From Rubripirellula sp. (GTDB taxonomy: Bacteria > Planctomycetota > Planctomycetia > Pirellulales > Pirellulaceae): a stretch of 64,000 nt of DNA. The notes under the pieces were generated by a model that made no database searches, had not been told where the DNA came from, and worked only from the letters and a program-made list of their open reading frames with translations. Numbering within the stretch: the first letter of the stretch is position 1; each line of letters begins with the position of its first letter. The stretch spans positions 7,456,001 to 7,520,000 of the forward strand of contig OZ244207.1 in NCBI GenBank assembly GCA_965216875.1, given 5' to 3'. The position numbers and the translations under genes were made by a program. Below, piece by piece: positions 16,862 through 34,637 of the stretch.

Positions 16862-16864
16862 TCG

Positions 16865-17797
16865 ATGGAACGGGATGCCATGCAAACGAAATATCGGCTG
16901 ATAGCCCTGTCGCTCTGTTGCTTTGCGGCGACGTTACCATGCGCGTTGCCTGCCGAGGAACTTGAGGCGTTCACCGAACCCTACAAACGCGTTGCCATTC
17001 CTGCTGCGGAAGTCGGTGTCATTGACCGAGTGTTGGTGTCCGAAGGCGACTCCGTTTCCAAAAAGCAGATGCTTGCGCGATTGGACGACCGCGTGCTGCA
17101 GGCCACCTTGCTTGTCGCGCAAGCAGCCAAAGATGCGCTTGGCAATCGACAGGCCGCAGAAGCAGACTTGAAGATGCGCACCCAACAACTTGAGAGCTAT
17201 CGCCAACTGCGCGCTCGTGGAAACGCAACGCAGCGAGAGCTGGAACGGGCCGAGGCGGATCATTTGCAGTCGCAATCTCGCCTGCAAGCGGTCAACGAGG
17301 AACTTGAAGTCAGGCGTCTTGAGTATGAGCGAGTGAAGGCGCAGATCAACCAACGACGCATTGAGTCGCCCATCGAAGGCGTGGTGGTCGAAATCGAGAA
17401 AGAAGAAGGCGAGTTCGTGTCGCCCACCGACCCCGTCGTGATGCACATTGTCCAGCTCAAGATGCTTAAGGCCGTCTTTTCAGCACCGATGTCCTCCGTT
17501 TCGGCACGCGGTCGAAAGGCCTTGCGTCCAGGTCAAACTGTCAAGGTTGTCGTTGGTCCTCAAGAACGTGTTTGTGAGGGCGTGATCGAATTCGTGTCGC
17601 CGGTCGCAGATGCCCAGAGCGCGACGGTCCGCGTCAAGATTCGCATTCCGAACGAAGAGGGCATCGTCCAAAGTGGCGCGGTCTGTCGTTGGGACATGAC
17701 TTCCGCGGCCCCCGTTGAACGGTTAGGACAAAACGTTGAACGGCTCGGACAAAACGTTCAACGATTGGGGCAAGGGGCCAACTCACAGACCAAGTAG
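16865..17797 (+). CDS. HlyD/RND-type periplasmic adaptor
   Basis: Signal peptide, GVIDRVLVSEGDSV and IESPIEGVV lipoyl halves, coiled coil, IEFVSPVAD. Confidence 0.88.
   Translation: MERDAMQTKYRLIALSLCCFAATLPCALPAEELEAFTEPYKRVAIPAAEVGVIDRVLVSEGDSVSKKQMLARLDDRVLQATLLVAQAAKDALGNRQAAEADLKMRTQQLESYRQLRARGNATQRELERAEADHLQSQSRLQAVNEELEVRRLEYERVKAQINQRRIESPIEGVVVEIEKEEGEFVSPTDPVVMHIVQLKMLKAVFSAPMSSVSARGRKALRPGQTVKVVVGPQERVCEGVIEFVSPVADAQSATVRVKIRIPNEEGIVQSGAVCRWDMTSAAPVERLGQNVERLGQNVQRLGQGANSQTK
17714..17776. repeat. Three 21-bp tandem repeats encoding VERLGQN VERLGQN VQRLGQG
   Basis: gttgaacggttaggacaaaac / gttgaacggctcggacaaaac / gttcaacgattggggcaaggg. Confidence 0.85.
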
Positions 17798-17818
17798 GGC
17801 AGGTCGAGATGACCATGC

Positions 17819-19375
17819 TTGCTAGGTGAAACGCAAAAAGTTCAGCAAGTGGATAATGGTGACGGCAAATTGCATGATCCGTCGATTCTGGTTGGTTCAG
17901 GCCAATTTCAGGTCCCGGTCGTTGCTGGAAACACGTCAACCAATCAGGCTGACAACACGGCCAATCCGACAGCACACAACGGGCAACAAACGACAGGCGA
18001 ATCGGAGCTTGTCGTTCGTGCCGAGCAGGCGGAGTTAACCGCCCTCGTCTTGGCGACGATCGTCGAAATCCACTGCGAGATGGATGGAGCGGCGAATCTT
18101 GAGAATGCCGCCGCCGCAGCAGCGCACGCAGTGCGCGATCAGCTTGCAGGAAAATGCGTGTTGGTGGGGTGGAAATCGGAGGACTCAGCAGGCATCAAAC
18201 TCGTTGCTCAGGCTGGGAGTGGTCCGCCCCTATCGCAAGAAGTACATCGGCTTGCCGAAGCAGCGTGCGAAGAAGTGCTGGCTCGAGGCACGTTAACGAT
18301 TTGGCCGGCACAGAAGCACGCGAGCCGTCATGCGTTGATGGCGGTGTCGCAATTTGGTCGTCGTGTTCATTGCGAATCGATGGTCGCAGCACCTTTGACC
18401 GCTGGTCGAGATGGTCGGGCCGGTGTCTTGATTGCGGTCGACTGTGAGTTTCCAGCTGTGGCCGAGCGTCTGATCGACGGACTTCGAGATCCACTCGGTT
18501 CAAAACTGGACGCGTATGCAGAGCAGCGCCCCAGTCGAATTGAATCGCTCGTTCGGCAAACCGTGAATCTGTTTCGTGGCGAACGACGCAAGTTCTTTTC
18601 GCTCGCGTTGACGGCGATCACCTTGTTGATGGTTTTGCCAGTGCGATACCGCATTTCAGGAAGCTGTGAATTGCAACCGGTTCAACGACGGTTTGTCGCA
18701 GCGCCCTTTGACGGTCCTCTCAAAGCAGCGATGGTGCGCCCCGGCGATCTCGTGCTCGAAGAACAGTTGTTGGCAACGATCAATCCGAGAGAGATCGAAT
18801 ACAAGCTTGCCGGCGTTCGCGCAGACCTTTCGAGAGCCCAGCAAGAGCAAAAAGGAATGATGGCCGACCACGACATCGCGGGCAGCAAACTCGCCGCACT
18901 CGAGTCGGCGCGACTGCGATACGAAAAAGAACTGCTCGAATACCAACGTTCCCACCTCGAGATCCGCAGTCCGATCCGCGGCATCGTGGTGAGCGGTGAT
19001 TTGGAAGAAGCGGAAGGCACTCCGCTTTCTCGCGGTGAAACATTGTTCGAGATTGCCCCGCTTGGCCAGATGGTTGTCGAAGTGGCCATCCCGGAAGAAG
19101 ACTTCCCGCATGTTCGGCGCGGGATGCCCGTCGACTTTTATGTTTACTCGCTGCCCAATCGAAAGCTGTCGGGGACACTTCAGCGAATTCATCCCCGTGC
19201 CGAATTGCGCGACCATGACAATGTTTTCATCGGCGAAGTGTTCGTTAGCGATCCTCGAAACCTCTTGCGGCCCGGAATGCGCGGCAAAGCGACCATCACT
19301 GGCGATCGTCACTCGCTCGGTTGGAATCTATTTCACAAGGCATACCACGCCGTTCGAACCTCACTCGTGCTCTAG
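17819..19375 (+). CDS. HlyD-family adaptor with an N-terminal cytoplasmic (GAF-like) domain and one TM helix
   Basis: TM FFSLALTAITLLMVLP, VAAPFDG...VRPGDLV, IRSPIRGIV, LRPGMRG; start codon uncertain (TTG). Confidence 0.8.
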   Translation: MLGETQKVQQVDNGDGKLHDPSILVGSGQFQVPVVAGNTSTNQADNTANPTAHNGQQTTGESELVVRAEQAELTALVLATIVEIHCEMDGAANLENAAAAAAHAVRDQLAGKCVLVGWKSEDSAGIKLVAQAGSGPPLSQEVHRLAEAACEEVLARGTLTIWPAQKHASRHALMAVSQFGRRVHCESMVAAPLTAGRDGRAGVLIAVDCEFPAVAERLIDGLRDPLGSKLDAYAEQRPSRIESLVRQTVNLFRGERRKFFSLALTAITLLMVLPVRYRISGSCELQPVQRRFVAAPFDGPLKAAMVRPGDLVLEEQLLATINPREIEYKLAGVRADLSRAQQEQKGMMADHDIAGSKLAALESARLRYEKELLEYQRSHLEIRSPIRGIVVSGDLEEAEGTPLSRGETLFEIAPLGQMVVEVAIPEEDFPHVRRGMPVDFYVYSLPNRKLSGTLQRIHPRAELRDHDNVFIGEVFVSDPRNLLRPGMRGKATITGDRHSLGWNLFHKAYHAVRTSLVL

Positions 19376-19381
19376 GCTGGT

Positions 19382-21532
19382 ATGTCGACGCGGGATCCAA
19401 ACACGATCGATCTGACTCAGGCGACACTTCGGTTGGCCGACGATATCGTTGTGTGGCCCGTGTCCGAACGTGGTCAGACCGTCTATCGCATCGAGATTCC
19501 TTCGTTGCACAAGTTCTTTCGCGTCGGCTACGAAGAGTACGTGTTCATTTCACTGCTGGATGGCAAGACGACACTTGCCCAAGCGTGCGGGTTGGCGGCT
19601 CGGCAACTCGGAAGCGATGCGCCGACCTCCAAACAAGCGGATTCGATACAGCGTTGGTTGCTACAGAATGGTCTTGCCTATTTGCCGCAAGATGCGCCAC
19701 CGGTTCGTGATACGCGATTACAGGCAACGGGCCATCGCACGTGGGCAAACCTCAATCCGTTTTGGATGAAATTCTCGTTGCCCGCCAGTCAACGCGTGCT
19801 CGCGCCGCTCGCGAAACGATTGAAGTTCCTTTTCAATCCGTTGTTGGTCAGCGTTGGGTTGGCGGTTATCGCAGCGGCGATCTTTATTCTTTGCGTGAAC
19901 TGGAAGTCGTTTTCCGAAAGCGCAAAGGAGATCATCAGTCTGAACAATTGGGCATGGCTGTTGGGCACCTGGGTCGCACTCAAGGTCGTCCATGAGTTGG
20001 CGCACGCGATTGCTTGTTATCGGCACGGCGGCGTTGTTCGCGAATCGGGTGTTGTGCTGGTGCTGTTCGCCCCGTTGGCCTATGTGGACGTGACCAGTTG
20101 TTGGCGTATGAACTCGCGTTGGGCGCGAATCGCCGTAGCGGCGGCAGGTATGTACGTCGAGTTGGTGATCGCCGCACTGGCAATCATTGCATGGACATTC
20201 GTCGACTCGGCGAGCACCAAGTTCTTTCTCTACAACTTAGTGCTCTCGGCCGGACTGTCGACCGTGTTGTTCAACGCGAACGCCTTGATGAGGTTCGATG
20301 GTTACTTCATTTTAGCCGACCTGATCGATGTTCCGAACTTGTATGCCGAAGGGTCACAGTCGGTGCGTCGGATCGCACGACGATTGGTGCTGGGGCTGCC
20401 CTCCGGGAAGACTCACTTGGTGGGATGGCGGCGGCATTTAGCAACGGCCTATGGTTTTGCATCGTGCATTTGGCGAGTGACCATTTGCGTCACCTTGGCG
20501 ATCACGGCCGCGACGATGTTCGCTGGCGCCGGGATTGCCATCGCGGCATTGGGTGTGGTGATGTGGTTGGGCAAACCGACTCGGCAAGTGTGGACCACAA
20601 TGAGTGACCTTTACCGCCAGGACCGCGCACGCTTTGTTCGTGCTTTGGTCGTGAGTAGCGGATTGCTCGGCGGCGGATGGTTGTTGTTTTGGAAAATCCC
20701 ACTGCCCACCGCTGTCCACGCGCCGACGGTTGCGATGTATCGCCCAGAGACGATTGTCCGCAGCCAGGCGACGGGCTTCATACGCGCCGTCCACGTACAC
20801 AACCAGCAAGAGGTCAAGCAAGGTGACCTGTTGATCGAGTTGGAAAATCGCGAACTCGTCAAGCAATACCAACAGCTCAAGCTGACCATCGAGCAAAACG
20901 AAATCCGGCTCCGCAAAGCAGCGGGTGACCAGGATCCATCGTTGCAGTGGGTGCTCAAGCAGAATCGCGTGGCACTTGACGAACAATTGGATCAACTCCA
21001 ACCGCAGGTCGATGGATTGAGCGTACTCGCACCGCGAGACGGTTTTGTTGTCCAGCGTGATTTAGCGATGAAGGTCAACAGCTACGTCCACGAAGGTGAC
21101 GCATTGCTTGTGGTGGCAAGCCATGGCGATAAAGAGCTGATCGCACTGGTTGATCAGGATTCGATTGACCAAGTCCGCTCGAGCATTGGCACAAAGGTTC
21201 CCATTCGAACGGCAAGCTATGAGGTGGCGCAAGGCACCTTGGGGCGGATCGAGCCTCGCGGCACGTTGCGATTGCCCAATCCGTCGCTGGCGGCGGCCGA
21301 AGGAGGTCCGCTTGAGGTGCGGCGGGTCGACGAAGCTGGCCTTGGCGATCAAGCCTACCAACTATTGACGCCCCATTTTCAAGCTCGGCTCGAGGTCAGC
21401 CCCGACGTTGCTCAAGAGATTCCGGCGGGGATGCGAATGACGACGATGTTGGGTTACCAAAATGATCCCATGGCAACGCGAATCAAGAAAACGGTTCGTC
21501 GGCTTTGGCATGAAGCCAACCAGCAGCAGTGA
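19382..21532 (+). CDS. Site-2 protease (M50) family membrane protein fused to an N-terminal PqqD-like domain and a C-terminal HlyD domain
   Basis: HELAH zinc motif, NALMRFDGY motif, several TM helices, C-terminal lipoyl/coiled-coil region (VRSQATGFI, VLAPRDGFV); N-terminal ISLLDGKTTL. Confidence 0.82.
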   Translation: MSTRDPNTIDLTQATLRLADDIVVWPVSERGQTVYRIEIPSLHKFFRVGYEEYVFISLLDGKTTLAQACGLAARQLGSDAPTSKQADSIQRWLLQNGLAYLPQDAPPVRDTRLQATGHRTWANLNPFWMKFSLPASQRVLAPLAKRLKFLFNPLLVSVGLAVIAAAIFILCVNWKSFSESAKEIISLNNWAWLLGTWVALKVVHELAHAIACYRHGGVVRESGVVLVLFAPLAYVDVTSCWRMNSRWARIAVAAAGMYVELVIAALAIIAWTFVDSASTKFFLYNLVLSAGLSTVLFNANALMRFDGYFILADLIDVPNLYAEGSQSVRRIARRLVLGLPSGKTHLVGWRRHLATAYGFASCIWRVTICVTLAITAATMFAGAGIAIAALGVVMWLGKPTRQVWTTMSDLYRQDRARFVRALVVSSGLLGGGWLLFWKIPLPTAVHAPTVAMYRPETIVRSQATGFIRAVHVHNQQEVKQGDLLIELENRELVKQYQQLKLTIEQNEIRLRKAAGDQDPSLQWVLKQNRVALDEQLDQLQPQVDGLSVLAPRDGFVVQRDLAMKVNSYVHEGDALLVVASHGDKELIALVDQDSIDQVRSSIGTKVPIRTASYEVAQGTLGRIEPRGTLRLPNPSLAAAEGGPLEVRRVDEAGLGDQAYQLLTPHFQARLEVSPDVAQEIPAGMRMTTMLGYQNDPMATRIKKTVRRLWHEANQQQ

Positions 21533-21583: not shown

Positions 21584-22606
21584 TTAGGAGAGCGCGGCGC
21601 GATCTTCCAACGCCGAACGTACCTCGGCAAATTGCTCGGCGTTGCGTTCGAAAGCATCCACAACGGCCGGGTCAAATTGCTTGCCGCGTTCGGCAATGAT
21701 CATCTCGCAAACCTGCTCGTGGCAATAGGCATCCTTGTAGACGCGTTTGGACGCAAGAGCGTCGTAAACATCGGCAAGCGAGACGATGCGACCGCAGAGC
21801 GGAATGTCTTGGCCAGAGAGTCCGTGAGGGTAGCCGCGACCATCCCAACGTTCGTGATGGGATTCGGCGATATCACGAGCGACGGTCAAAAAGCTCGCTT
21901 CGGGATGGGCGTCCAGTGTCGCCGAAAGCGTTTCTCCGCCGATGATCGTATGCTCCTTCATCTTTTCGTATTCTTCATCGGTCAGTGACGACGTCTTGTG
22001 AAGGATCTCGTCGGGGATGCCCACTTTGCCAATGTCGTGAAGCGGGCTGGTCGAGTAGATCGCCTCGATGTAGTCGCCATCGATCTGGTCTTGATAGGGA
22101 CCGTTTTGCGAAAGGTCCACGGCGAGCAGTCGACTGTATTCACGGACGCGTTCGAGGTGCGCACCCGTTTCGGCATCGCGTGTTTCGGCGATGTTCGCGA
22201 GTGCCAAAATGGTCACATCGCGGTTTTCGAGTGACAGCACACGTTCGCCCACACGCAGTCGCACGCACAGTTCGGCAGGTTCGACGGGCTTGATGATCAT
22301 ATCGTCGGCGCCCGCATCAAGCGCCGCGACGGTGTCGTCGGTCGAGTTCCGCGCCGTGACGAGAATGATGTAGATGTAGCGGCCATAGTGCCTTGACCGG
22401 ATGGCTCGACAGAGTTCAAGGCCGGACATTTCAGGCATGTTCCAGTCCGAGACCACCAATCGGTAGTTTCCGGTTCGAAGCATGACGAGCGCTTGGTCGC
22501 CGTCGTCGGCACAATCGACTTCGTAACCAGCTTCAATCAACATGTCAGCGTGCAGTTCTTGGATGATGGGATCATCATCCACAACCAATACTCTTGAGTT
22601 CTTCAT
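21584..22606 (-). CDS. Response regulator with HD-GYP c-di-GMP phosphodiesterase domain (RpfG-like)
   Basis: REC VLVVDDD...VSDWNMP; LHDIGK, HHERWDGRGYP, DVYDAL. Confidence 0.93.
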   Translation of the reverse strand: MKNSRVLVVDDDPIIQELHADMLIEAGYEVDCADDGDQALVMLRTGNYRLVVSDWNMPEMSGLELCRAIRSRHYGRYIYIILVTARNSTDDTVAALDAGADDMIIKPVEPAELCVRLRVGERVLSLENRDVTILALANIAETRDAETGAHLERVREYSRLLAVDLSQNGPYQDQIDGDYIEAIYSTSPLHDIGKVGIPDEILHKTSSLTDEEYEKMKEHTIIGGETLSATLDAHPEASFLTVARDIAESHHERWDGRGYPHGLSGQDIPLCGRIVSLADVYDALASKRVYKDAYCHEQVCEMIIAERGKQFDPAVVDAFERNAEQFAEVRSALEDRAALS

Positions 22607-22615
22607 TGTCTTCTT

Positions 22616-25600
22616 TTACCCCACGGCTTCCGTCTGGCAGAGGTCGGTATCCAACTGCGTTGATTCAACGTATTTGTTAAAGCGGTCGATTTGTCGCCCC
22701 AAGGAATCGAGCGTTGATGTTGCGTCATCGCCGAGTTCCGCTTGTTCACCAAGGTCTTGCAGCGTGGCGGCATCCTGTTCGATGGCTTCGGCTCCAAGCG
22801 ACGCGGCGACGCCCTTGAGGGCGTGAGCACGCTGTTTGAACCCTTCGGCGTCGGCATCCGCGAGGCACCGTTCCAGTTCGGCCATGTCGTCGCCGAGGCG
22901 AGAATGCAAACGGTCAATCAGCTTCTTTGCCAACGGCTGTTTTCCGTTGCAGCGTTGCAAGAGCGATTCGACATCCAAGACCCGGAACGCGTGTTGGGCG
23001 TCGGATGACTCGTCCGTTTGAACCGCATCTGACGCTTCAGTGGTCGCAGATTCTTGGTCCTGCGGTTGGCTGGGAGTCAGTGCAAGATTTTGCGGCGAAT
23101 CGGAGTCGACCTGAGCCTGCGATCGATCTTGCGCAATGCACCGCTTGATCGTGTCGACCAATTGATCAGCCTGTAGCGGCTTGCTTAGGTAGTCGTTCAT
23201 TCCCGCGTCAAGACAACGCCGGCGTTCGCCCGGCATTGCGTTGGCAGTAAGCGCGACGATCGGAATAGGACGGGAGGCCTTTTTGTTTGATTCGATCTGA
23301 CGAATGATGCGAGTCGCTTCCATGCCGTCCATTTCAGGCATGTGCCAATCCATCAAAACCAAGTCATACTGTTTGCGCTTGACCATTTCGACCGCTTCGC
23401 GGCCGTTGTCGGCAACGTCGCACTGATAACCAAGCTGCGAGAGCATTTCGGTGACAACCATTTGGTTGATCTCTTGGTCCTCGGCCAAAAGGATGTTGCC
23501 ACGGTTTTTGGGTGTGTCCTCTTGCTTCGCTGCGTAACGTTTGGTCCGCTTTTCACCGGTCAGGCACTGCAACAGTTCTTTGGCTCGCACGGGCTTTTCG
23601 ATGAAGTCGTCGAACCCGTCATCGCAGAGTTCTTCGACACTTCGACAATGACCAAGTGGGACCATTGCCGTCAATTTGGTGGGCGAACTATCGCGTTCGT
23701 TGCTGAACACGTGAGCGAGTGAGGTCGCGGAATCGTCGGTGAGTGCGGCGTCCACCAACGCGAGATGATAGGGCACATCACTCGCTTTGGCCTTGCGTAG
23801 TGCGACCAGGGCATCGATCGGGTCGGCGACCACGTCAGCTTCAAGACCCCAGTCAATCAAACGCATCCGAAGCGATTCGCAGACCGCTTGGCTGTCATCG
23901 ACGACAAGGACTTTTGTGCCTTGGATGCCCTCGGGCAATTTGAGCGTTTCGATGGTTGATGATTCGAGTTTGGCAAGCGTGACCGTGAATGCGAACACCG
24001 AACCTTCACCCAGGACACTGGTCACTCCGATGTGACCGCCCATCATTTCGCAAAGTTGTTTGCAGATTCCCAGGCCCAGTCCTGTTCCGCCGTAACGTCG
24101 CGTGGTCGATGCATCCGCTTGTGTAAAGGCTTCGAAAACTCGATCGAGCTGCTCTTCAGGGATTCCGATGCCTGTATCGCGAACTTGGAATTGAACGCAT
24201 ACCGATTCGTCGGTCTCTTCTTGTTTGACCACGCGAACATGGATCTCGCCCTGCTCAGTGAATTTGATCGCGTTGTTGGTCAAGTTATTCAAGATCTGAG
24301 CCAGTCGGCCGGGGTCACCCGAGACTGACATCGGGATCGATGGGTCGATCGAGCAGATCAATTCGACTCCTTCACGACATCGGTGGGCAACCGTGCTGAT
24401 GACCGATTCGATCATGTGAATTGGATGAAACTCAATGTGCTCGAGCTCAAGTTTGCCAGCTTCGATCTTTGAAAAGTCGAGGACTTCGTTGACCAAATGA
24501 AGTAGGGAAACGCCTGAGTATTGAGCGGCTTCGGCGTATTTCGCCTGCTGGCGATCAAGATCCGTTTTGAGCAACAGTTCATTCAGGCCGATCACACCAT
24601 TGAGTGGTGTTCGGAGTTCATGTGAAATGTTGGCCAAAAACTCACTCTTAGCTCGGCTAGCCAGCTCGGCTTCGGCGCGGGCCTGTTCGAGTTGTTCGTT
24701 GTATGCGGTCAGTTGTTGTTGCGTTTGCTTGAGCGTTGCAATGGTGCCATTGAGTTCGCGCGTGCGATCGGCCACCTTTTGTTCGAGATTCGCATTCAGA
24801 TCCGTGATCGTTTGATGGTTCGATTCCATGTGCGCAACCATTAAGTTGAATTGGCGCGCAAGCCGGTCGATCTCGTCGTTCCCAGTGGGCAACAGCCGCC
24901 GAGAGAGATCGCCTTTTCCAACCAAGTCCATCGCTTTGACCAAGTTGGCAACGCGGTAGGCAATCGAGTCACCTACCACGGTTGAGTAGACGACTCCCAA
25001 GACGATAGCGGTGATCGTGATGAACACACTGTGTGTGCGCAGCGCGTCGATCGCTTGTTCTTGGGTTTCGGGATGGTTGATCATCTCCGAAGCGCGTTGG
25101 CTGGCAACGGTGCCAATCATCAACGCCGTTGTGGCGATGATCAGCGTGAAGCAGAGACGCATGCGGAAACGAAGCTTACCGGGTCGTACTTTTTCGTAAT
25201 TGATCGCCACGCCGCGGCGGAGCAGGAATCGAATCACCGCCTTCATGCAGTGTTCGACGGCAAAGAAGTGCGACATCAACGCCATCGATATCGCAATGAA
25301 GACCGCAACCGTGATGCTGCCCATGATCATCACCGACGCGCCGTCGACGACTTTCAACACGATAAGGACGGGAAGCCAAGTCGACGCGGGGACCAACCAT
25401 GCTTCGTTGCGATGATGACGCGATGAGAATTCGACCGCTTCGCGACCAGCATGGTCACCAAGTTCTTGGTCAACCTCGTCGCCCCGAGTCAATCGCTTGA
25501 TTGCTTCACGCAGATGGCGAGTTTCCCACTGGGAAAGTAGCAACGTCAATGCGCAGGCAACTGCCGTCACAATCGCACTGGTGATGCGGAAGTGCATCCG

Positions 25601-25783
25601 CGTCTCGTGCGGGATCTCCATCGTGAATTCGACGTAGTAGATCACCAACAAGCCGCCCGAGATTCCGAACAGCCGTGTGGCGATCATCATCACCAGAATG
25701 AAATGGTGCCCCAAGTCCTCGAGCCATCGATCGACCCGCGAAGGGCGCTCGATGAGTTCGGCAGTCGGATTGCTTGAGGTCAT
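22616..25783 (-). CDS. Hybrid sensor histidine kinase (about 6 TM, HAMP, HisKA, HATPase, REC, REC, Hpt), RpfC-like
   Basis: Six hydrophobic segments, HAMP GDLSRRL...[32 protein letters not shown], two REC domains, AHALKG Hpt; 9 bp upstream of the HD-GYP gene. Confidence 0.92.
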
Positions 25784-25900
25784 GAATGTGCCAGGGGATG
25801 GCGTAGTGGGGACATTTTGGGGATGTCAGGTGGGCAAACATCATCAACGCAAAAAGTGATGTGCTTTGGCTCGCGTCCCGACTTGTGGCCTACCCTTGCA

Positions 25901-25925
25901 GTGTGGTTGGGTCTGGGAACCACAC
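25901..25925. promoter_or_regulatory. Perfect 8-9-8 inverted repeat in the divergent intergenic region (candidate operator or hairpin)
   Basis: GTGTGGTT-gggtctggg-AACCACAC. Confidence 0.35.
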
Positions 25926-26061
25926 CCCCGAGGGTTGCGGCAATGACGCTTGAAACGGTTGCCAACGCCATCGCATCGGATTGCCAATGCTCGGCATTCG
26001 TCGTGGGAACGCGGACCGAAAGGAAAATAGGTCACCGCGCATCGTGAGCAAGCCAACCGGG

Positions 26062-26085
26062 ATCAAAGAGATAACAGTCTTTGAT
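26062..26085. promoter_or_regulatory. Perfect 8-8-8 inverted repeat in the divergent intergenic region (candidate operator)
   Basis: ATCAAAGA-gataacag-TCTTTGAT. Confidence 0.35.
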
Positions 26086-26317
26086 AGCAATTCGTAAGGA
26101 GTAGCGATTGCGTTGAATCGTCCGGTTTTTTCGATTCTGAGCTCAAGTATCGGTTAGATAGCGTACGACGGTTAATGACAGAGACGAGCCGCTCCCCACA
26201 CGGTTCGTGCGCTCCGATGTTGTCGGGCACTGCTGCGCGAGTTCTGTGGGGCGAGGAAACGGCGGCAATGATTCGTTCGTCAACAACACGACACATTGCA
26301 ACAGGCTGGCATGGGCG

Positions 26318-27448
26318 ATGCGTAACCTTGCATTCTTGGGGCTCATTCTGATTAGTTCGCTGGCACCCGTTTGGGGCCAGGAGCTGGTTGACCTATCGAT
26401 CGACGATCTTCATTTGGCGTCTTCTCTCGAGGATGCGGCATCGGAATCTGAGTTTGTTGACTTCGTTGCCTGCGAGTTCGATCAGTGCGACACCTGTAGC
26501 GGGGTATCGTGTCGATGTTCAAAGCGTTTTCGCGACCGTTTACATGGCAGCGTTGAAACGCTCATCGTGCGTCCTCACTTTAGTGAAGCGGTTGCTTATG
26601 CAGCGGGGTCACAGACGGCCACAACGTTTAACATTGGCGCTCGGCCTATCAAATTTGATTACCGAGGTGGTATTCGCGCAATGTTTGGTCTCGACCTTGC
26701 GCGTCACTCCGATTCACTGCGCTTCACCTACTCCTACTTGCGAGGGGATGTTTCGATAAGCAGCGCGAACCTGGCGGCCAACGAATTCATTGTGGATCCT
26801 TTTGGAAACGTTGTTGGGTCGGTCACGATCGTTGATCCATCGGACGCGCGCTTTGGGACGACGATAACTGGGGGGGATGCGATTCAAACGCGATCGACCG
26901 TCGACGTTGATGTGTATGACATCGACTTTCACCGCATCTGGGGTGACGATCGGTGTTGGGAGGTTGCGCTCGACGCGGGTATCCGCATTGCGAACGTCAA
27001 ACAGACGTATCATTCGCTGGCAACAGCCGGCGCAACAACCGCCGGGTTTGGCTCGTTTTTCGCGGAATTTACGGGCGCTGGGCCACATTTGGGACTGCGT
27101 GGCACGCGTGCAGTTGGAGCGAAAAAACGACTCGCGTTTTACGGATCAACCCACACTGCGCTGATGCTTGGTGACTATGACGTTGTTTCGGGAAACAACA
27201 TTGGGGGTGGGGCGTTTGTTGCAAACCAAGACAACAACCAGCGTCGTACCATTGCAACGATTGAAACGGAACTCGGCGCGCGTTGGCGTGTTGGTTCGCG
27301 TTTAGATCTTGCCGCAGGATGGTTGTTTCACTTCTGGAATGACATGGGTGTAAGCGGCGGAACATTCAGCGGACTCTTCAACGGCGCTGATGATTCAAAC
27401 AACATGACGTTCGACGGCGCGTTTGTTCGCGCAGAGTTTCGTCACTGA
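26318..27448 (+). CDS. Outer membrane beta-barrel protein (Lpg1974/BBP7-like planctomycete porin)
   Basis: Signal peptide from ATG 26318 (MRNLAFLGLIL...), Cys-rich N-terminal patch, alternating beta strands, FTGAGPHLG, C-terminal FDGAFVRAEFRH. Confidence 0.75.
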   Translation: MRNLAFLGLILISSLAPVWGQELVDLSIDDLHLASSLEDAASESEFVDFVACEFDQCDTCSGVSCRCSKRFRDRLHGSVETLIVRPHFSEAVAYAAGSQTATTFNIGARPIKFDYRGGIRAMFGLDLARHSDSLRFTYSYLRGDVSISSANLAANEFIVDPFGNVVGSVTIVDPSDARFGTTITGGDAIQTRSTVDVDVYDIDFHRIWGDDRCWEVALDAGIRIANVKQTYHSLATAGATTAGFGSFFAEFTGAGPHLGLRGTRAVGAKKRLAFYGSTHTALMLGDYDVVSGNNIGGGAFVANQDNNQRRTIATIETELGARWRVGSRLDLAAGWLFHFWNDMGVSGGTFSGLFNGADDSNNMTFDGAFVRAEFRH

Positions 27449-27806
27449 TTTTAAAACGTTAACAATTAGAGAAACTCGCCGTATCTCTACTAAGCGAGTT
27501 GCGCCCCACCCGCCGAAAATTTCTTTCGCGACTTTCCGCAAATGTGTTGGCATGTCGCGCGCCTTTGGCGTTCAATCGGTGTAACAAACAGCGTCCGTGC
27601 ACGAAACGGTAACGCGGTTTGATCCGGTTATGGGGCACGCAGGTGTGTTGATCCAACACATCTGATCCATGAACCGCCAGTGGTTTCCCTTGCCCTGTGA
27701 TCGGTGTGACCTAGCTTTTAGCTGGTGATGTTCGAAGCGAATCGATTACATCACGTGTGCTGAAACCGAGGCACATTGCGCACTCCCACACGCAAGGTAC
27801 GACTAA

Positions 27807-28901
27807 TTGACAGCGCCCAGCACAGAAACCACGCGACCGGCTGGCATGGATGCAAGCACCTCGCAATCGGAACCATTGACCATGCTCTCGCAAGTAAGTG
27901 AGTTGGTTGATGAGGAACTCGCCAGCGTCGACTGGAGTCAAACCTTTGACCTCTCGGCCGATCGAATTGAACGGGAAGTGACTGCGCTCGAGAAGGTGCG
28001 GTTGAGCGACGAGATTGAGTATTGGGTGAACCGATACGGCGAGGTCGGCGAGCGTCATCCCTATTTGTGGGCTTGGTGTCGACAAGGGGTCGAGCTGACC
28101 ACGTTGGACAGCGTCCAAGACGAACACTTCGACAGGGTGTGTGACACCAAGCTGCTGGGCGTCATGTTTGACGTGCTTGTCGATGACGTCGCAGATCAAG
28201 GTGGTGACAAGGAGCTGCTTGATCAGCTGATCGCGATCACCACGGGGACTTGTCACGCTCCGAATACTGGTAATGAACAGACAGACGCGTACGTGACGCT
28301 CGCCATCGATGTTTGGCAGGAGATTCAACGACGCGTCCACTCGTTGGCTCGCCACGCCGAGTTCGCCGATGTGCTCGCCTACGACTACGCACAGTTGATG
28401 AATGCGATGCGGTATTCGCATCTGCTCAACAAGACGCCGTCGATGTTGAATCTGGCTGAACACGATCTGTACTTGCCTCATAACATGCACATGATGGTTT
28501 CCGCCACAATCGACTTGATGGCCTCGCCTAGCTTCGACGCCAGCGAAATCGGGCGGCTTCGCGAGGCGATTTGGCATTCTCAATACATGGGGCGAATTGG
28601 AAATCTCGTTACCACATGGAAACGCGAATTGCACGAGGGCGATTACACCAGTGGTGTGTTTGCTCATGCGGTGATTCATGGGCAACTTTCACTTGACCAA
28701 CTACGGGGTGGCGACCGAGAAACCGTGGCTCGTTCCATCGTTAACGGTGGACACGAAGATCATTTTTTAGCGAAGTGGCAGCAACATCGTCGCGATTTGA
28801 TCGGACTGCAAAAGGCGATCGAGTCAGTTGACTTGAAGCCGCTCATCGAGGGGCTTCAACGATTGATCTGTTTGCACTTGGCTAGCCGCGGGCGCAAGTA
28901 A
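27807..28901 (+). CDS. Class I terpene synthase / isoprenoid-synthase-fold protein
   Basis: Asp-rich FDVLVDDVAD (DDxxD) and an NSE/DTE-like GNLVTTWKRELHEGD about 150 aa downstream; all-helical composition; alternative start ATG 27846. Confidence 0.7.
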   Translation: MTAPSTETTRPAGMDASTSQSEPLTMLSQVSELVDEELASVDWSQTFDLSADRIEREVTALEKVRLSDEIEYWVNRYGEVGERHPYLWAWCRQGVELTTLDSVQDEHFDRVCDTKLLGVMFDVLVDDVADQGGDKELLDQLIAITTGTCHAPNTGNEQTDAYVTLAIDVWQEIQRRVHSLARHAEFADVLAYDYAQLMNAMRYSHLLNKTPSMLNLAEHDLYLPHNMHMMVSATIDLMASPSFDASEIGRLREAIWHSQYMGRIGNLVTTWKRELHEGDYTSGVFAHAVIHGQLSLDQLRGGDRETVARSIVNGGHEDHFLAKWQQHRRDLIGLQKAIESVDLKPLIEGLQRLICLHLASRGRK

Positions 28902-28913
28902 AGGAGACCCAAC

Positions 28914-29894
28914 ATGAAGATCATGCTTGCAGCACCGCGCGGTTTCTGTGCCGGTGTCAGGATGGCAACCGAGAGCCTGAAGAGGGCTCTCGATCTTTAC
29001 GGCGCCCCCGTCTTGGTTTATCACGAAATCGTCCACAACAATTGGATCGTCGACCAATTCGAAAATGCTGGTGTCGTCTTTATCAACGACATCAATGAAG
29101 CACCACGCGGAAGTGTCGTGATGTTCAGCGCTCACGGGGTTGCACCCGAGATTCGACAACGTGCTGCTGAGCTTGAGTTGACCACGATCGATGCGACCTG
29201 CCCACTGGTGCGTAAAGTGCACGACGAAGCAACTCGCTTCTCGCAGCAGGGCTTTACCGTCTTTTTGATTGGGCACGCTGGTCACGACGAAGTGGTCGGC
29301 ACGCTCGGCATTTCTGATCGTATCCACTTGGTCGAATCGATCGATGACGTCGATCAACTCACGGCAGAAGATCCCAGTAAGACCGCGTATGTAATGCAGA
29401 CGACGCTGAGCGTTGATGATTCGCAGAGAATCGTCGATCGTTTGCGTGAGCGTTTTCCGAGTGTCGTCGCGCCACCGAAGCAGGACATCTGCTACGCGAC
29501 TCAGAATCGCCAAGAAGCGGTCCGCGAGCTCGGACATGAGGCGGATGTCGTCTTGGTGGTAGGCAGCACGACAAGTTCTAACAGCACTCGTCTGAAGGAG
29601 CTTGGCGCCAGTCTCGGGCGTCCTGCCTATTTGGTAGATGGCCCCGACGACATTGATCTGAATTGGTTCACAGGCGATGAAACCGTGTTGATCACAGCGG
29701 GAGCGAGCGCACCGGAAATCTTGACGCAGCGCTGCGTCGACCGCTTGGTCAAAGCGTTCGGTGCGTCGGTCGAGGAACGTTTGCTGCGGGTCGAGCACGC
29801 GCAGTTTCCGTTGCCCATTGAGCTTCGCGAAGCGGCGGCTGCGAAGGGCTACTCCCTGGACGCGACCAACACGAGCTCGAACCTGCTTGTCTGA
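28914..29894 (+). CDS. ispH: 4-hydroxy-3-methylbut-2-enyl diphosphate reductase
   Basis: APRGFCAGV, HEIVHN, FSAHG, DATCPLV, GHDEV, DICYATQNRQ, SSNS, TAGASAPE; AAGGAG RBS in the 12-bp gap after the previous stop. Confidence 0.97.
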   Translation: MKIMLAAPRGFCAGVRMATESLKRALDLYGAPVLVYHEIVHNNWIVDQFENAGVVFINDINEAPRGSVVMFSAHGVAPEIRQRAAELELTTIDATCPLVRKVHDEATRFSQQGFTVFLIGHAGHDEVVGTLGISDRIHLVESIDDVDQLTAEDPSKTAYVMQTTLSVDDSQRIVDRLRERFPSVVAPPKQDICYATQNRQEAVRELGHEADVVLVVGSTTSSNSTRLKELGASLGRPAYLVDGPDDIDLNWFTGDETVLITAGASAPEILTQRCVDRLVKAFGASVEERLLRVEHAQFPLPIELREAAAAKGYSLDATNTSSNLLV

Positions 29895-29916
29895 GTCTCG
29901 TTAATGGTTCTCTTGC

Positions 29917-29998
29917 CCGTAGCTACCTTCGTCAGAAGGTGGACTGGGTTGGTAACCTGTCTCCATCACCGACAACGCTCTGGCGAGCGTAGCTACGG
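29917..29998. repeat. GTAG-type REP doublet (REPIN-like), copy 1
   Basis: GTAG-CTACCTTC-gtca-GAAGGTGG, 30-bp spacer, then inverted CAACGCTC-tggc-GAGCGTAG-CTAC; near-identical copy at 52126-52204. Confidence 0.85.
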
Positions 29999-30027
29999 TG
30001 CTTGTTCAAGGTCGCTCTCGACTACCC

Positions 30028-30056
30028 CACGCTCTAGCGAGCGTTGCTTGCTACGG
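30028..30056. repeat. Degenerate solo REP of the same family
   Basis: cacgctctagcgagcgttgcttgctacgg resembles caacgctctggcgagcgtagctacgg. Confidence 0.65.
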
Positions 30057-30393
30057 CGTCTCGAAGTTCGGCCCCCAGACGTCTCTGCGGCTGATTCTCA
30101 CGTCGTTGATAAGAGGTTCGGATTAGCTGGACCTCGCACGCCTCTGTTGGCGTGTCAGCCTCCCCATCGCTACCGCTGCGAGGGGATTAAGCTGCAACGG
30201 TTAGGTTTGCGTCGCGGTCGCTGCTTTTGCGATCTCAAGCGACCGCAGTGATCAATCCGATTCCAGTTGCTAGACACGCGTCAATACCTGCAGCACGCCT
30301 ACCGTCTGAAGAGTCAGCCGAGGCTGTGTAATCAGGTATGAACCTCCCACACCCCAACCTAAGCCGCAAACTTTACATGATCGCACAGGTTCC

Positions 30394-31692
30394 ATGAATC
30401 AATACCGTTTCAAGTCTGTTGTCGTCTGCCTGACGCTATTGGCGAGCATGCCGACCCTTGCACATCGAGCACACGCGGACGGTGTCATTCGGGACGGTCT
30501 TGGCGCGATATCCATCGGGCGTGGCGGTACGAACATTGGACATTCGGACAATGTCGCGATCGTGCTTGAAAACCCTGCGGGCATGGTCAACATTGCCAGC
30601 GAAAAGATGGGTGGGATTGGTGTCGAACTGTTGCGAACCGACATCGACTATTCCGACCCGATGAACAACACGAGTGCGGAAGTCCAGGTCTACCCTGTCG
30701 GTCAAGTTGGCTATGTCAAACGGGACCCAATGGGACTCTGGGCGGTCGGATTTGGCGTCTTCGCACCCGCTGGATTTGGTGCAGAATGGAACGTCAACCA
30801 CGCGGTGTTTGGCCCGCAACGTCAAAAGTCGTTCGGCGCGTTGATCAAGATTCTGCCGGGATTCTCGGTTCGCATGACAGAGAAGCTTTCCGTTGGTGCG
30901 GGACTTGGCGTCGCGGTCAGTCGTACGGAACTGAGCGGTCCGTTTCACTTGCAAAGTGGACCACCGCCCTTGCCCGGTGCACCAACGTTGCTTGACATGG
31001 AAGCGACCGGAGCGGCGCTCGCGTGGAATGTGGGATTGCAGTATCAGCTGTCCGACAAAACGACTCTTGGCCTTTCCTATGTTGGCGAAACCGACGTCGA
31101 GCACTCAGGTGATGCGACAGCAACCGTTCCAATTCCTGGGTTCGGTTTGCAGACCGGTGATTTCGACGCTGATGTCAACCTTGCTTGGCCGCGGTCACTC
31201 GGGATCGGGCTGGTTCATTCACCTTGTTGTCATCATCGGTTCTCGGTCGATGCGATCTGGTATGACTGGTCCAGCGCCTTTGACGACGTCGAATTGACAT
31301 TGTCGAATCCATCGAACCCGATCTTCCTCGGTGTGTTGGGGAATTCGTTCACGGACCTGTTTCCACTTCGCTGGCGAGATTCGGTGTCGGTCCGAACCGG
31401 GTATGAGCACTTCTTTGGCAATGACAAAGTGCTGCGTACGGGGTATGTCTACCATCGAAACCCGATTCCCGACGCGACGCTTACCAATTACATCCCTGCG
31501 ATTCTCGAGCACGCGTTCTCGGTCGGCTATGGCCAGAAGGTCTGCGGCTGGAATGTGGATTTGGCGTACCAGTTCTCTTGGGGTGCTTCGCGGTCCGTGG
31601 GAACGAGCGCCATTCTTGGTGGCGACTTCGACAACAGCAGCGTCGACGCCGAAGCTCATTGGTTTGCGATCAACGTCCAGCATCGACATTGA
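30394..31692 (+). CDS. FadL/OmpP1/TodX family outer membrane channel for hydrophobic molecules
   Basis: Signal peptide ending AHA, hatch-domain GAISIGRGG...ENPAG (NPA motif), GFGVFAPAG, WRDSVSVRTGYE beta strands. Confidence 0.87.
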   Translation: MNQYRFKSVVVCLTLLASMPTLAHRAHADGVIRDGLGAISIGRGGTNIGHSDNVAIVLENPAGMVNIASEKMGGIGVELLRTDIDYSDPMNNTSAEVQVYPVGQVGYVKRDPMGLWAVGFGVFAPAGFGAEWNVNHAVFGPQRQKSFGALIKILPGFSVRMTEKLSVGAGLGVAVSRTELSGPFHLQSGPPPLPGAPTLLDMEATGAALAWNVGLQYQLSDKTTLGLSYVGETDVEHSGDATATVPIPGFGLQTGDFDADVNLAWPRSLGIGLVHSPCCHHRFSVDAIWYDWSSAFDDVELTLSNPSNPIFLGVLGNSFTDLFPLRWRDSVSVRTGYEHFFGNDKVLRTGYVYHRNPIPDATLTNYIPAILEHAFSVGYGQKVCGWNVDLAYQFSWGASRSVGTSAILGGDFDNSSVDAEAHWFAINVQHRH

Positions 31693-31896
31693 TCCCGACG
31701 CCCGTATCAATGACTCAATCGAACGATGGTTCGATTGCGTAGACATGCGTCCAACAACTGCGGGTGAATCTTGATCAATTTGTTGTGATCGTGCGGTCGC
31801 GTAGATATAACCAGATTGGTATTCCGAGCTTACTGATCGTGTGTTTGGAATCACGCAACCGAGACGAAGCAGCATTGATTGACGAGACGACCTGTT

Positions 31897-34365
31897 ATGA
31901 AACGCTCATATACCTTCGGCGGCAAGACCGTCGAGTTGGAAGCGGTCCCCGATATGTTGGGCGTTCGCTTCAGCGAACCGGCGCCCTACAGCGCCCGAGC
32001 CGCGGCGGTACGCGGCCCTGAGTTTGGCGAGTTTGAAAAACGGACCGAATTGCCTCGTGAGAAATTCACGATCTTCAAAGTCTCGCCTTCGCCAGTCGAT
32101 CCAGAAAAGCGGTTGGCCGCTGCGGCCGCAACGGTGTCACGTTCGAAAGCGGTCGAACGCGTCTCACCTATCTTTGCTGTAGGCGATGCTTATGCGATGG
32201 CGACCGAGCGGTTGTTGGTTGGGTTCACCAGCGCCAAAGCATCGAAAGACTTCATCGACGATTTTGAAGAGGTGATTTCAAAGGAAGGCAACGAGTACGT
32301 CGTGCGGCTTGCCAGTGACGCCGACCCGTTCAAGTCCGCTGCGGATCTGATGGAATATGAAGGTGTCGAATACGCTGAGCCTGACTTTGTCAATTTTGGC
32401 TCGCACCTGCCGCGGCGTGTGATGCGTTCGAGCGATGACAAAAAGGGCACCGGTTCGTCGGAAGTCGACCAGTATGCCATTCGCATCACGCAGGCCGTCG
32501 AAGCTTGGCAGTTGCAGAAGGGAGACCCCAAGATTCGTATCGCGATCCTCGACGAAGGTGTTGATACCGGACACGAGGATTTGGCATCGATCATCGTTGG
32601 TAACTACGACGGCGTTGATGATGACGATTTTCAAGAGCCGAAAGATTGGGATGCGCATGGCACGGCGTGCGCAGGTTTGGCGGCGGCAAGACATGACAAC
32701 GAAATCGGGGTCAAAGGAATCGGCGGTGGTTGTTCAATTCTAGCGGTTCGAATCGCATACTCTGCGAGTCGAGGTGCCAACTGGACGACACGCAATTCTT
32801 GGATCGCTCGCGCGATCGATTGGTCATGGAGGAATGACGCCGACGTGTTGAGCAATAGTTGGGGCGGCGGAACGCCATCAGCTGCGATTGCCAATGCGTT
32901 CCACCGTGCACGCAGTAAAGGACGAGGTGGTAAAGGCGCCGTGTTGGTGATGGCTGCAGGCAACGCCAATCGCTTGCACGATTTTCCGAGCAGCTTGGAC
33001 GAAGTGTTGACGGTTTCGGCAAGCAACGAATACGACGAACCCAAGACGCCCACCAGTCGTGATGGCGAACGTTGGTGGGGATCGAGTTATGGCCCGAAAG
33101 TTGATGTTGCCGCGCCGGGCGTACACAACGCGACCACCGATAACTCTGGCCCGCGCGGTTACAACCGTGTCCATGGCGAGGCCGGGAACTACACCCCTGC
33201 GTTCAATGGCACGTCTTCGTCGACTCCCATTGTTGCGGGGGCGATCGGGTTAGTGCTTTCGGCAAACCCTGATCTAACCGAGGCGGAGGTTCGCGACATC
33301 ATCCGCAACTCTGCCGACAAGGTTGGAGACATTCCCTATGTCAACGGTCGCAATGATCGCATGGGGCACGGACGGCTCAACGTGCTGCGGGCCGTCAAGA
33401 TGGCCAAGGAAACCGAGGATCGGGTTGTCCCGACAGGGCTGCATGCACCGGTGACCAACGAGGTTGGAGATTCCGAAGCGGAGGTCACCCTGATCGCGGT
33501 CAAGCACGCGACGGTTGGCTCGGCGGCGACCGATGGCCATCACGAATCCGACGGTCAGGAGTCGCTGCCGCAAGAGAAAGCGCGGGGCGCTGGAAAGCTA
33601 GCACCACCGCCGGCTCCGCAAGCACCTGACATTAGCGGACTTCAAGACATTGCGACGGCGTCCTACATCGACATGCCGTCGCCAGAAACCGTTCATGGTG
33701 TTGACGATCGTCGACGGATCAAATCGACAAAAAACTATCCATGGCGGGCGACGGCATCGTTGGTCATCACCGCGCGTGACGATTCGTCATGGATCGGAAC
33801 GGGGTGGTTCATCGGACCGAACACGTTGGTCACAGCAGGACATTGTGTCTATATCCACCGACCAGAGCGTCCCGAACGTCATGGTTTTGTCAAACGCATC
33901 GTTGTGATCCCGGGCCGCAATGAGAATGAAATGCCGTACGGTTCCGCGGCGTCCGAAACGTTCTTCTCAGTCAAAGGTTGGACGGAACATGGACGAAGCG
34001 ACTTTGATTATGGGGCGATCAAGATCTCGACGGGTCTTGGTGACAAGGTTGGTACCTTGGGCTTCGGTGTTTTCGGGCGTGACGATCTGATGAGTGTCAC
34101 CGGTAACATTGCCGGCTACCCGGGGGACAAGGAAAAGGGCACGCTTTGGTATGACCACAACCGGGTCGCGCGCGTGTCGGATCGCAAGATCTATTACGAC
34201 ATCGACACCGCGGGCGGGCAAAGTGGTGCTGCCGTTTACAAGTTCGAAGATGGCCAACGCATTGCGTTTGGGATTCACGCCTATGGGGGCGCGATCAATA
34301 ATTCGGCGACGCGTATCACGACACCCGTTTTTCAGAATCTGACCAATTGGAACGAGGACGATTGA
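31897..34365 (+). CDS. S8 subtilase fused to a C-terminal V8/glutamyl-endopeptidase-like (S1B) protease
   Basis: S8 triad AILDEG, HGTACAG, GTSSSTP; trypsin-like triad TAGHC, DYG, GGQSG; no obvious signal peptide; alternative TTG start 31879. Confidence 0.9.
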   Translation: MKRSYTFGGKTVELEAVPDMLGVRFSEPAPYSARAAAVRGPEFGEFEKRTELPREKFTIFKVSPSPVDPEKRLAAAAATVSRSKAVERVSPIFAVGDAYAMATERLLVGFTSAKASKDFIDDFEEVISKEGNEYVVRLASDADPFKSAADLMEYEGVEYAEPDFVNFGSHLPRRVMRSSDDKKGTGSSEVDQYAIRITQAVEAWQLQKGDPKIRIAILDEGVDTGHEDLASIIVGNYDGVDDDDFQEPKDWDAHGTACAGLAAARHDNEIGVKGIGGGCSILAVRIAYSASRGANWTTRNSWIARAIDWSWRNDADVLSNSWGGGTPSAAIANAFHRARSKGRGGKGAVLVMAAGNANRLHDFPSSLDEVLTVSASNEYDEPKTPTSRDGERWWGSSYGPKVDVAAPGVHNATTDNSGPRGYNRVHGEAGNYTPAFNGTSSSTPIVAGAIGLVLSANPDLTEAEVRDIIRNSADKVGDIPYVNGRNDRMGHGRLNVLRAVKMAKETEDRVVPTGLHAPVTNEVGDSEAEVTLIAVKHATVGSAATDGHHESDGQESLPQEKARGAGKLAPPPAPQAPDISGLQDIATASYIDMPSPETVHGVDDRRRIKSTKNYPWRATASLVITARDDSSWIGTGWFIGPNTLVTAGHCVYIHRPERPERHGFVKRIVVIPGRNENEMPYGSAASETFFSVKGWTEHGRSDFDYGAIKISTGLGDKVGTLGFGVFGRDDLMSVTGNIAGYPGDKEKGTLWYDHNRVARVSDRKIYYDIDTAGGQSGAAVYKFEDGQRIAFGIHAYGGAINNSATRITTPVFQNLTNWNEDD

Positions 34366-34637
34366 TGCCGGATCTTTGGTCGCTCAACCTTTGCGTTGTC
34401 GATCCCCAAGGTGGCCCCGTCGAGATGGCCGCCGTAAGTATTTCCGCGTCGTCACATCCGGTTGCCGATGTCGCCGCGTGTACCTCGGCGTCCGGTCGGG
34501 TTGCCATCGATGTGCCGTCGAGTGGTCGCTACACGATCACCATCGTCGCCGACAAGGGACGACGAGCCTCGGTTGAGGTGGAAGCGGTGACCGACGATGC
34601 GATCACCACCATCGCTCTCGATGATGGTGAGGAATGA
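34365..34637 (+). CDS. Small acidic beta-sandwich protein (carboxypeptidase-regulatory-like/prealbumin-like), coupled to the protease gene
   Basis: TGATG stop/start overlap at 34363-34367; VVDPQGGPV...TSASGR...GRYTITI pattern. Confidence 0.65.
   Translation: MPDLWSLNLCVVDPQGGPVEMAAVSISASSHPVADVAACTSASGRVAIDVPSSGRYTITIVADKGRRASVEVEAVTDDAITTIALDDGEE

Follow-up and report, generated by a model that had tools for sequence, protein, structure and literature searches.

A terpene-synthase-fold enzyme paired with a six-helix sensor kinase: a candidate isoprenoid signalling cassette in planctomycetes

The stretch of planctomycete DNA analysed here (64,000 nucleotides of Rubripirellula sp., contig OZ244207.1, positions 7,456,001 to 7,520,000; hereafter 'the window') carries a gene cassette that combines an unannotated enzyme of the class I terpene-synthase fold with a hybrid histidine kinase, the membrane domain of which consists of six transmembrane (6TM) helices and is a candidate receptor. 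Further members include an additional IspH, a FadL-family outer-membrane channel and a REC-HD-GYP response regulator (Table 1). Because the synthase and the 6TM kinase accompany each other nearly one to one in related genomes, a synthase–sensor relationship is the best reading on genomic evidence, and the cassette is probably a cognate synthase–receptor pair for a diffusible isoprenoid signal that would be sensed in the membrane.

Pairing and shared history of synthase and sensor

Profile searches of an order-level sample of 301 genomes identified the synthase in 40 and the 6TM domain in 41, with an overlap of 40; the one extra case, from a 78% complete genome, is truncated at the end of a contig. 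In a second sample the two are found in the same 4 of 61 genomes. The synthase profile is matched in five and the sensor profile in two of the 401 genomes of a phylum sample, both sensors adjoining a synthase; one of the other three synthase genomes has a different kinase partner and two harbour distant family members. The pairing extends to individual copies, counted after manual merging of split matches: of 51 synthases, 49 are no more than 500 nt from a sensor, the exceptions being one fragment and the window itself, where the two genes are divergent and 2.1 kb apart. Conversely, a synthase lies within 500 nt of 49 out of 56 sensors, also in genomes with two cassettes, and the seven unpaired sensors comprise that of the window, two at contig ends, one fragment and three lone sensors with a synthase elsewhere in the genome. 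Chance adjacency of common genes is ruled out by this overlap of genomes and spacing of copies. The divergent arrangement is peculiar to this genome; in its relatives the kinase lies directly 3′ of the synthase. Lone 6TM kinases (L195, L197, L222) occur in genomes that have a cassette elsewhere, and L197 keeps the gene for a catalytically dead DXS-like region (see below) minus the synthase domain.

An earlier interpretation made from the DNA letters alone, the sequence-only reading, had expected the enzyme to recur together with IspH, FadL, the 6TM kinase and an HD-GYP protein, and the survey bears this out for the synthase and the kinase, with IspH and FadL as frequent partners. We picked 107 loci by synthase similarity alone (25 + 2 + the best 80 of 101), 36 of which extend at least 8 kb downstream; these contain the sensor in 31 cases, IspH and FadL in 23 each, HD-GYP in 19 and RibB in 12. 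Addition of 40 stretches hand-picked from the order sample and removal of duplicates gave 56 loci, all with at least 8 kb downstream, that include the sensor in 51, IspH in 42, FadL in 34, HD-GYP in 21, RibB in 14 and the outer-membrane barrel in seven; sensor, HD-GYP, IspH and FadL are all present together in 14. Partners were labelled by BLAST with few queries, and diverged members can be missed. At one locus the ispH–kinase junction is repeated at a contig end (L022:5054-9083), which looks like an assembly artefact.

The synthase and the 6TM domain also resemble each other in their trees. Spearman's rho between synthase and 6TM tree distances is 0.82 (78 pairs), compared to 0.52 for IspH (47 pairs), 0.53 for FadL (34 pairs) and 0.35 for the kinase core (62 pairs), such that IspH and FadL track the synthase better than does the kinase core although they are further away. 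The two 125-residue halves of the 6TM domain yield values of 0.82 and 0.79, and the 110 residues that follow 0.29 (75 pairs). In trees of 39 common loci, 20 of the 23 supported synthase splits recur in the sensor tree, 14 in the core tree and 13 in the IspH tree, and the output domains behind the sensor vary among loci. Such tracking would be the trace expected of a cognate synthase–receptor pair.

Enzyme, sensor, precursor genes and outputs

The synthase has escaped annotation; its sequence matches no Pfam or NCBIfam model, and searches of the PDB with the protein, its profile and a distant relative returned nothing significant. Homologues make up 505 of 5262 candidates, and the family amounts to 663 clusters at 50% identity. 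The database gene call is 339 aa long and starts at 27882. The structure model (predicted local distance difference test, 94) is all-helical, and VIA-align places LrdC at the top of its matches (Z 22.1, root-mean-square deviation 3.3, 279 aligned), followed by several cyclases with Z 21–22, the N-prenyltransferase DabA with Z 21.0 and prenyl-chain synthases with Z of 19.4 or less, all at a sequence identity of 5–14% (10–14% for the top cyclases); Foldseek agrees (E 4e-5). According to the model, the protein is of the class I terpene-synthase fold, and the sequence-only reading was right to assign it there, given a Z of about 22 and invariant metal-binding residues. The motifs are DDVAD (126–130), NLVTTWKRE (266–274) and SRG (360–362). 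The second metal motif of class I terpene synthases, NSE/DTE, usually follows the pattern (N/D)Dxx(S/T)xxxE, and a C-terminal RY motif and a pyrophosphate-sensor arginine complete the set. In the 78 distinct sensor-paired members compared, D126, D127, D130, N266, T270 and E274 are invariant, as are R83 and H219; R263 is present in 77, and residue 115 is always basic (Lys 71, Arg 7). The DDxxD motif sits at the end of a long helix in the model. There is one DDxxD only and no PF00348 match, and the protein thereby differs from trans-isoprenyl diphosphate synthases, which have two such motifs; the three PF00348 matches of the genome are all located elsewhere. Two genomes (L039-L044) each have four remote members of the family, arranged in tandem or accompanied by a P450, flavoprotein or methyltransferase, which are putative terpene clusters.

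The kinase consists of six hydrophobic segments, HAMP, HisKA (H388), HATPase, two REC domains (D678 and D812) and Hpt (H987), the residues of the phosphorelay all being intact; by eye, the end of strand 4 of the first REC looks atypical. Its best NCBIfam model, BarA, remains below cut-off. The 6TM domain is single-copy in the genome and belongs to an unnamed family, with the six segments indicated by hydropathy and model and a HAMP domain behind them in 18 of 18 members. It matches no Pfam sensor family, its PDB sequence matches fall on HAMP only, and structural comparison gave no clear counterpart (Z at most 9.2, on HAMP), which does not show a new fold. Prediction of a complex of two 6TM chains with the synthase scored 0.00; controls were not run, and the result is evidence neither for nor against contact. 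A protein from a eukaryote collection (P0330) joins 6TM kinase, HD-GYP and IspG domains; it probably reflects a bacterial cassette whose genes were wrongly called as a single one.

The cassette would come with its own supply of isoprenoid precursors. Its IspH scores 289 bits against TIGR00216 (cut-off 188) and displays in translation three cysteine motifs, which we take to be the Fe-S ligands. Another ispH elsewhere in the genome encodes a protein 58% identical to it; all eight cassette genomes checked possess two or three copies, and two genomes without a cassette one each. Local duplication of the housekeeping gene is unsupported, with nine housekeeping copies forming a branch of their own in a quick tree (97% Shimodaira–Hasegawa-like approximate likelihood ratio test, SH-aLRT), outside of which fall the cassette proteins and two other non-cassette copies. 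The second IspH is dedicated to the cassette. Neither type 1 nor type 2 isomerase was found above cut-off in five cassette genomes, this one included, which would leave IspH to set the ratio of dimethylallyl to isopentenyl diphosphate (DMAPP:IPP); this ratio is reported to differ between IspH enzymes in plants (PMC7067565). IspG and P450 are among the isoprenoid-related neighbours of the synthase. An N-terminal region resembling DXS occurs on 63 of 149 synthase representatives; in the 30 longest or most typical extensions aligned, the DXS motifs are lost in 29 and kept in one, and intact DXS fusions derive from Phycisphaerae-type loci. Fusions with a motif-less DXS-like domain of 500–600 aa (P0125, P0127 and others; L082, L198-L204) are common in two families of the order, and the synthase is further fused to RibB (P0122), to a geranylgeranyl-reductase-like domain (P0269) or to a methyltransferase.

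RibB may be a further precursor gene. Stand-alone RibB, extra to the housekeeping RibBA, adjoins the synthase in 24 of 142 related loci but is missing from this window; at L023:8321-9073 and 23 other loci this second RibB, beside or fused to the synthase, bears systematic changes near the substrate loop. The acidic loop and the Cys, His and Glu motifs are kept. A threonine of 10/10 housekeeping RibB proteins is replaced in 20 of 22 cassette proteins (Pro 19, Ala 1), aligning just behind loop 2, and a proline directly follows the TG[IV]S motif in 22/22 of them versus 1/10 housekeeping proteins. Loop 2 is described as contacting the substrate phosphate and Mg2+ (PMC5228156). Point mutants of E. 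coli RibB are reported to supply DXP (1-deoxy-D-xylulose 5-phosphate; PMC3424233; PMC8227265), and to do so in dxs-null E. coli (PMC3424233). Cassette RibB occupies the place that DXS has in other cassettes; unlike the laboratory suppressors (G108S, D113G), it keeps the glycine and the acidic residue at those positions and is changed elsewhere. RibB is found in 24, intact DXS in 14 and both in none of the 142 loci, an exclusion that is not significant (p 0.065) in loci that are incomplete and related; one of the 14 (L201) is probably a housekeeping ispA-dxs pair. Cassette RibB may form DXP, although we lean somewhat against it; if it does, it would show in nature a route so far seen in laboratory suppressor mutants.

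On the output side, the REC-HD-GYP protein contains D54, ETGAH, HDIGK, HTxxG, HHE, DGxGYP, ADxxDA and RxxK, and is predicted to be an active cyclic di-GMP (c-di-GMP) phosphodiesterase. HD-GYP proteins lie beside 17 of 18 Hpt-bearing kinases versus 3 of 33 others, and in one of 20 cassettes with a dead DXS fusion. Other loci point to different partners. Fusions of the synthase with PilZ, REC-PilZ or cNMP domains (L019:9518-10954, L020:9590-10948, L024:9518-10927; P0204, P0231, P0266), all from loci without 6TM, suggest second-messenger control of a terpene synthase; those with PilZ were seen on three contigs of proteobacterial or unclassified type and in several representatives. At L101:2704-9685, L102, L104 and L110 the synthase is divergent from a set of TonB receptor, YfiR, CHASE8 kinase and hybrid kinase, a second pairing of transporter and sensor. 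Also among the loci lacking 6TM are one where a Ser/Thr-kinase-GAF-histidine kinase is accompanied by HD-GYP and FadL, and one where a 7TM kinase adjoins a polyprenyl synthase.

Table 1 Coordinates of the cassette members within the window
Feature	Position	Strand	Basis
REC-HD-GYP response regulator (RpfG architecture)	21584..22606	-	Pfam and motifs
Hybrid histidine kinase, 6TM-HAMP-HisKA-HATPase-REC-REC-Hpt	22616..25783	-	Pfam, hydropathy, motifs
Six-helix membrane domain of the kinase, ~residues 15-265, candidate receptor	24989..25741	-	Co-occurrence, tree tracking
Outer-membrane beta-barrel, PF05150-like, accessory member	26207..27448	+	Pfam
Unannotated class I terpene-synthase-fold enzyme (from model), candidate signal synthase	27807..28901	+	Structure model, motifs
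Second IspH (HMBPP reductase)	28914..29894	+	Pfam, TIGR00216
Repetitive extragenic palindrome (REP)-like inverted repeat	29915..30000	.	Genome-wide family; blastn
FadL/TodX-family outer-membrane channel for hydrophobic molecules	30394..31692	+	Pfam PF03349

The six open reading frames (ORFs) lie where the sequence-only reading had placed them and are all intact, and the tight linkage that it saw between ispH and the synthase amounts to a start 12 nt behind the synthase ORF. Gaps of 358 nt between barrel and synthase and of 499 nt between ispH and fadL mean that the plus-strand arm need not be a single transcript; the latter gap contains the palindromic repeat, which recurs in 308 blastn pieces throughout the genome and is not specific to the cassette. 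The FadL/TodX product scores 105 bits for PF03349 (cut-off 29.7). The probable start of the barrel gene is the ATG at 26318, which by eye would yield a signal-peptide-like N-terminus. Promoter and terminator scans returned fewer sites than shuffled sequence, and 25700-27900 contains no convincing operator repeat. Of four sequencing runs considered, one guessed to be RNA has contigs that cover the synthase gene plus, upstream of the ORF, 205 nt, and two have none; contigs can neither show expression nor rank genes, and we draw nothing from them.

The host genome is a single contig of 8.26 Mb, and relatives of the window proteins carry planctomycete names. Profile searches of two congeneric genomes matched neither synthase nor sensor; in one the genes flanking the cassette are ~5 kb apart with no cassette between them, and in the other unrelated genes occupy the site, which makes the cassette an accessory block in this genome. 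Elsewhere in the window, 12744-21532 (+) is an operon encoding a TolC-like protein, a short SecA-like ATPase, a pair of HlyD proteins and a fusion of M50 peptidase with HlyD; the genome has five paralogues of the M50 gene. A fusion of subtilase and trypsin-like domains followed by a small carboxypeptidase-regulatory-like protein (31879-34637, +) is missing at the matching site of one congener. An HTTM protein, vitamin K-dependent carboxylase-like, adjoins a sulfotransferase (57791-60338, -), and a PAS hybrid kinase with two Hpt domains lies upstream of an RND efflux set (9281-12292, -).

Proposed signal synthesis and sensing, and alternative explanations

In the mechanism we propose, the extra IspH, joined in relatives by DXS, IspG or an altered RibB, would feed IPP and DMAPP to the pathway, and the synthase would ionise an allylic diphosphate with Mg2+ to release a small hydrophobic terpenoid. 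Our guess that this is a C10–C15 compound made from housekeeping geranyl or farnesyl diphosphate (GPP/FPP) has slightly better than even chances; a C5 or DMAPP-derived product is less probable but a serious candidate, and anything else is improbable. The product would exit the cell, return via FadL by lateral diffusion and bind the 6TM domain inside the membrane; FadL channels are reported to carry p-cymene and, in rhizobia, N-acyl homoserine lactone (AHL) signals (PMC7728783). HAMP would then relay to H388, D812 and H987, and on to D54 of the HD-GYP protein to change c-di-GMP levels, and other genomes would couple the same synthase–6TM pair to other outputs. A more comprehensive version, namely a terpenoid autoinducer system with clade-specific synthase–receptor pairs, a new family of intramembrane receptors and its own supply from the methylerythritol phosphate (MEP) pathway, including a natural RibB-type DXP synthase in one lineage, falls just short of an even chance in our judgement.

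A number of observations count against signalling of this kind. Two families supply 35 of the 40 synthase genomes of the order sample, which are therefore not 40 independent events; the sequences compared in the trees are likewise kin, and linkage (the 6TM region is usually the synthase's nearest neighbour) together with the low information content of conserved kinase domains can explain part of the tree contrast. The 6TM domain is missing from five of the 56 long loci. In the enzyme, the second metal motif is non-canonical, with NL for the usual ND (position 267 is Leu in 65/78 and never Asp), the C-terminal motif is RG rather than RY (R361 in 64/78, then Gly), and prenyltransferases score just 3–4 Z units below cyclases. 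HD-GYP is present in 20 of the 51 sensor-bearing cassettes with at least 8 kb downstream and missing from 31, so the c-di-GMP output claimed by the sequence-only reading, consistent with the intact HD-GYP protein here, is one of several. There is also no transcription factor in the cassette, and thus no evident sign of the positive feedback that quorum sensing typically has.

Three other explanations merit consideration. The synthase-fold protein or its product might act inside the producer only, as a membrane-bound reporter of MEP flux or a prenyl-diphosphate-binding partner that touches the kinase in its membrane domain. Direct contact of this kind would account for the co-evolution of synthase and 6TM domain as well as ligand fit does, the dead DXS-like domain of many relatives could be a scaffold or metabolite sensor, and RpfC is reported to bind RpfF in the diffusible signal factor (DSF) system (PMC7912708). 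We nevertheless regard it as unlikely, since FadL in 34 of the 56 long loci implies passage across the outer membrane, precursor-supply genes have been recruited repeatedly, and the three sensors with a synthase elsewhere in the genome, not adjacent, are as expected of receptors for a diffusible ligand. It is similarly unlikely that the cassette is a biosynthetic cluster for a defence compound or membrane lipid, controlled by a linked two-component system in response to an unrelated cue. Tailoring genes in some cassettes (P450 and SnoaL in L047, L048, L186 and L207; a flavoprotein in 10 of the 107 loci) and distant family members that belong to ordinary terpene clusters, together with P450 or methyltransferase, would fit a biosynthetic role; however, most cassettes are devoid of tailoring or export genes, the 6TM domain comes only in the company of the synthase across three genome samples (with the one contig-end exception), its output domains are freely swapped, and these outputs are kinases and HD-GYP proteins, not DNA-binding regulators.

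An explanation that we consider less probable still is that the enzyme is a prenyltransferase joining DMAPP or GPP to a non-terpenoid acceptor (an amino acid, nucleoside or peptide, as with DabA or ComQ), the conjugate being the signal. The Z score of DabA is close to those of the cyclases, the basic residue 115 and the invariant R83 and H219 could bind an anionic second substrate if their inferred position in the pocket is correct, and chain-elongating prenyl-diphosphate synthases, as judged by BLAST with the three enzymes of this genome, are nearby in just 4 of 142 loci, a scarcity that also weighs against our proposal. The synthase–kinase gap is often below 100 nt, which would leave no room for a peptide gene there, and no recurrent acceptor-making gene is apparent among neighbours of at least 140 aa. 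The diffusible isoprenoid signal thus remains the explanation we prefer.

Should it be correct, terpenoids would join the chemical classes of bacterial cell–cell signals, a large terpene-synthase family invisible to Pfam would gain its first role, and the receptor family for a terpenoid would get a name. With synthase, channel, receptor and output in one clonable set, the question of why bacteria emit terpenes would become directly testable. If the product were C5, the family would also be a long-sought bacterial hemiterpene synthase; it is a candidate for the isoprene synthase, the bacterial form of which a 2018 review lists as undiscovered (PMC5864225).

Comparison with known systems

The proposal of the sequence-only reading that the locus follows a synthase–sensor–phosphodiesterase logic with an isoprenoid signal holds in so far as the pairing is conserved; the likeness to Rpf is restricted to common modules, and the HD-GYP protein is optional. 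As described for the DSF/Rpf system of Xanthomonas (PMC7912708), the synthase gene has as its neighbours a membrane hybrid kinase bearing REC and Hpt domains and a REC-HD-GYP regulator. In contrast, RpfF is a crotonase-like enoyl-CoA hydratase/thioesterase, and a Pfam scan of 35 window proteins found no member of that family; the precursor genes belong to the MEP pathway rather than to fatty-acid metabolism, FadL and IspH are included, and the sensor domain is without a Pfam match, no direct comparison with RpfC having been made.

ComQXPA of Bacillus subtilis, described as having polymorphic specificity groups (PMC4008528), resembles the cassette in that the gene for an isoprenoid-using enzyme adjoins that for a membrane histidine kinase. 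ComQ, however, prenylates the peptide ComX, and no peptide gene was seen here among ORFs of at least 90 aa; the sensor domain and outputs are unlike, and the present host is Gram-negative and possesses an outer-membrane channel. The bacterial class I terpene synthases LrdC (6oh6), pimarane synthase (7e4o), T-muurolol synthase (9hqd) and 10-epi-cubebol synthase (7zrn) share the fold (Z 21–22), DDxxD and an NSE-like motif with the window protein, which differs from them by an identity of 10–16%, NL for ND, RG for RY, the lack of a Pfam match and its setting among sensor and MEP genes. MASE10 (PF20970) similarly comprises six transmembrane helices followed by HAMP, and an Atlas feature score of 0.95 links the sensor to a cluster in which 40% of the members bear MASE10, a lead only; none of 18 sensor members matches PF20970 at E up to 1, and MASE10 is described on HD-GYP, cyclase and PP2C proteins (bioRxiv 10.1101/2021.11.05.467447), whereas the 6TM domain resides on histidine kinases.

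A literature search, with subscription journals mostly outside its reach, found no description of a cassette of terpene synthase and 6TM kinase. As judged from its distribution, the cassette is real and conserved, and by its synthase it belongs to neither Rpf nor ComQXPA; signalling by a synthase and its sensor is known in kind, and what appears to be new is the chemistry.

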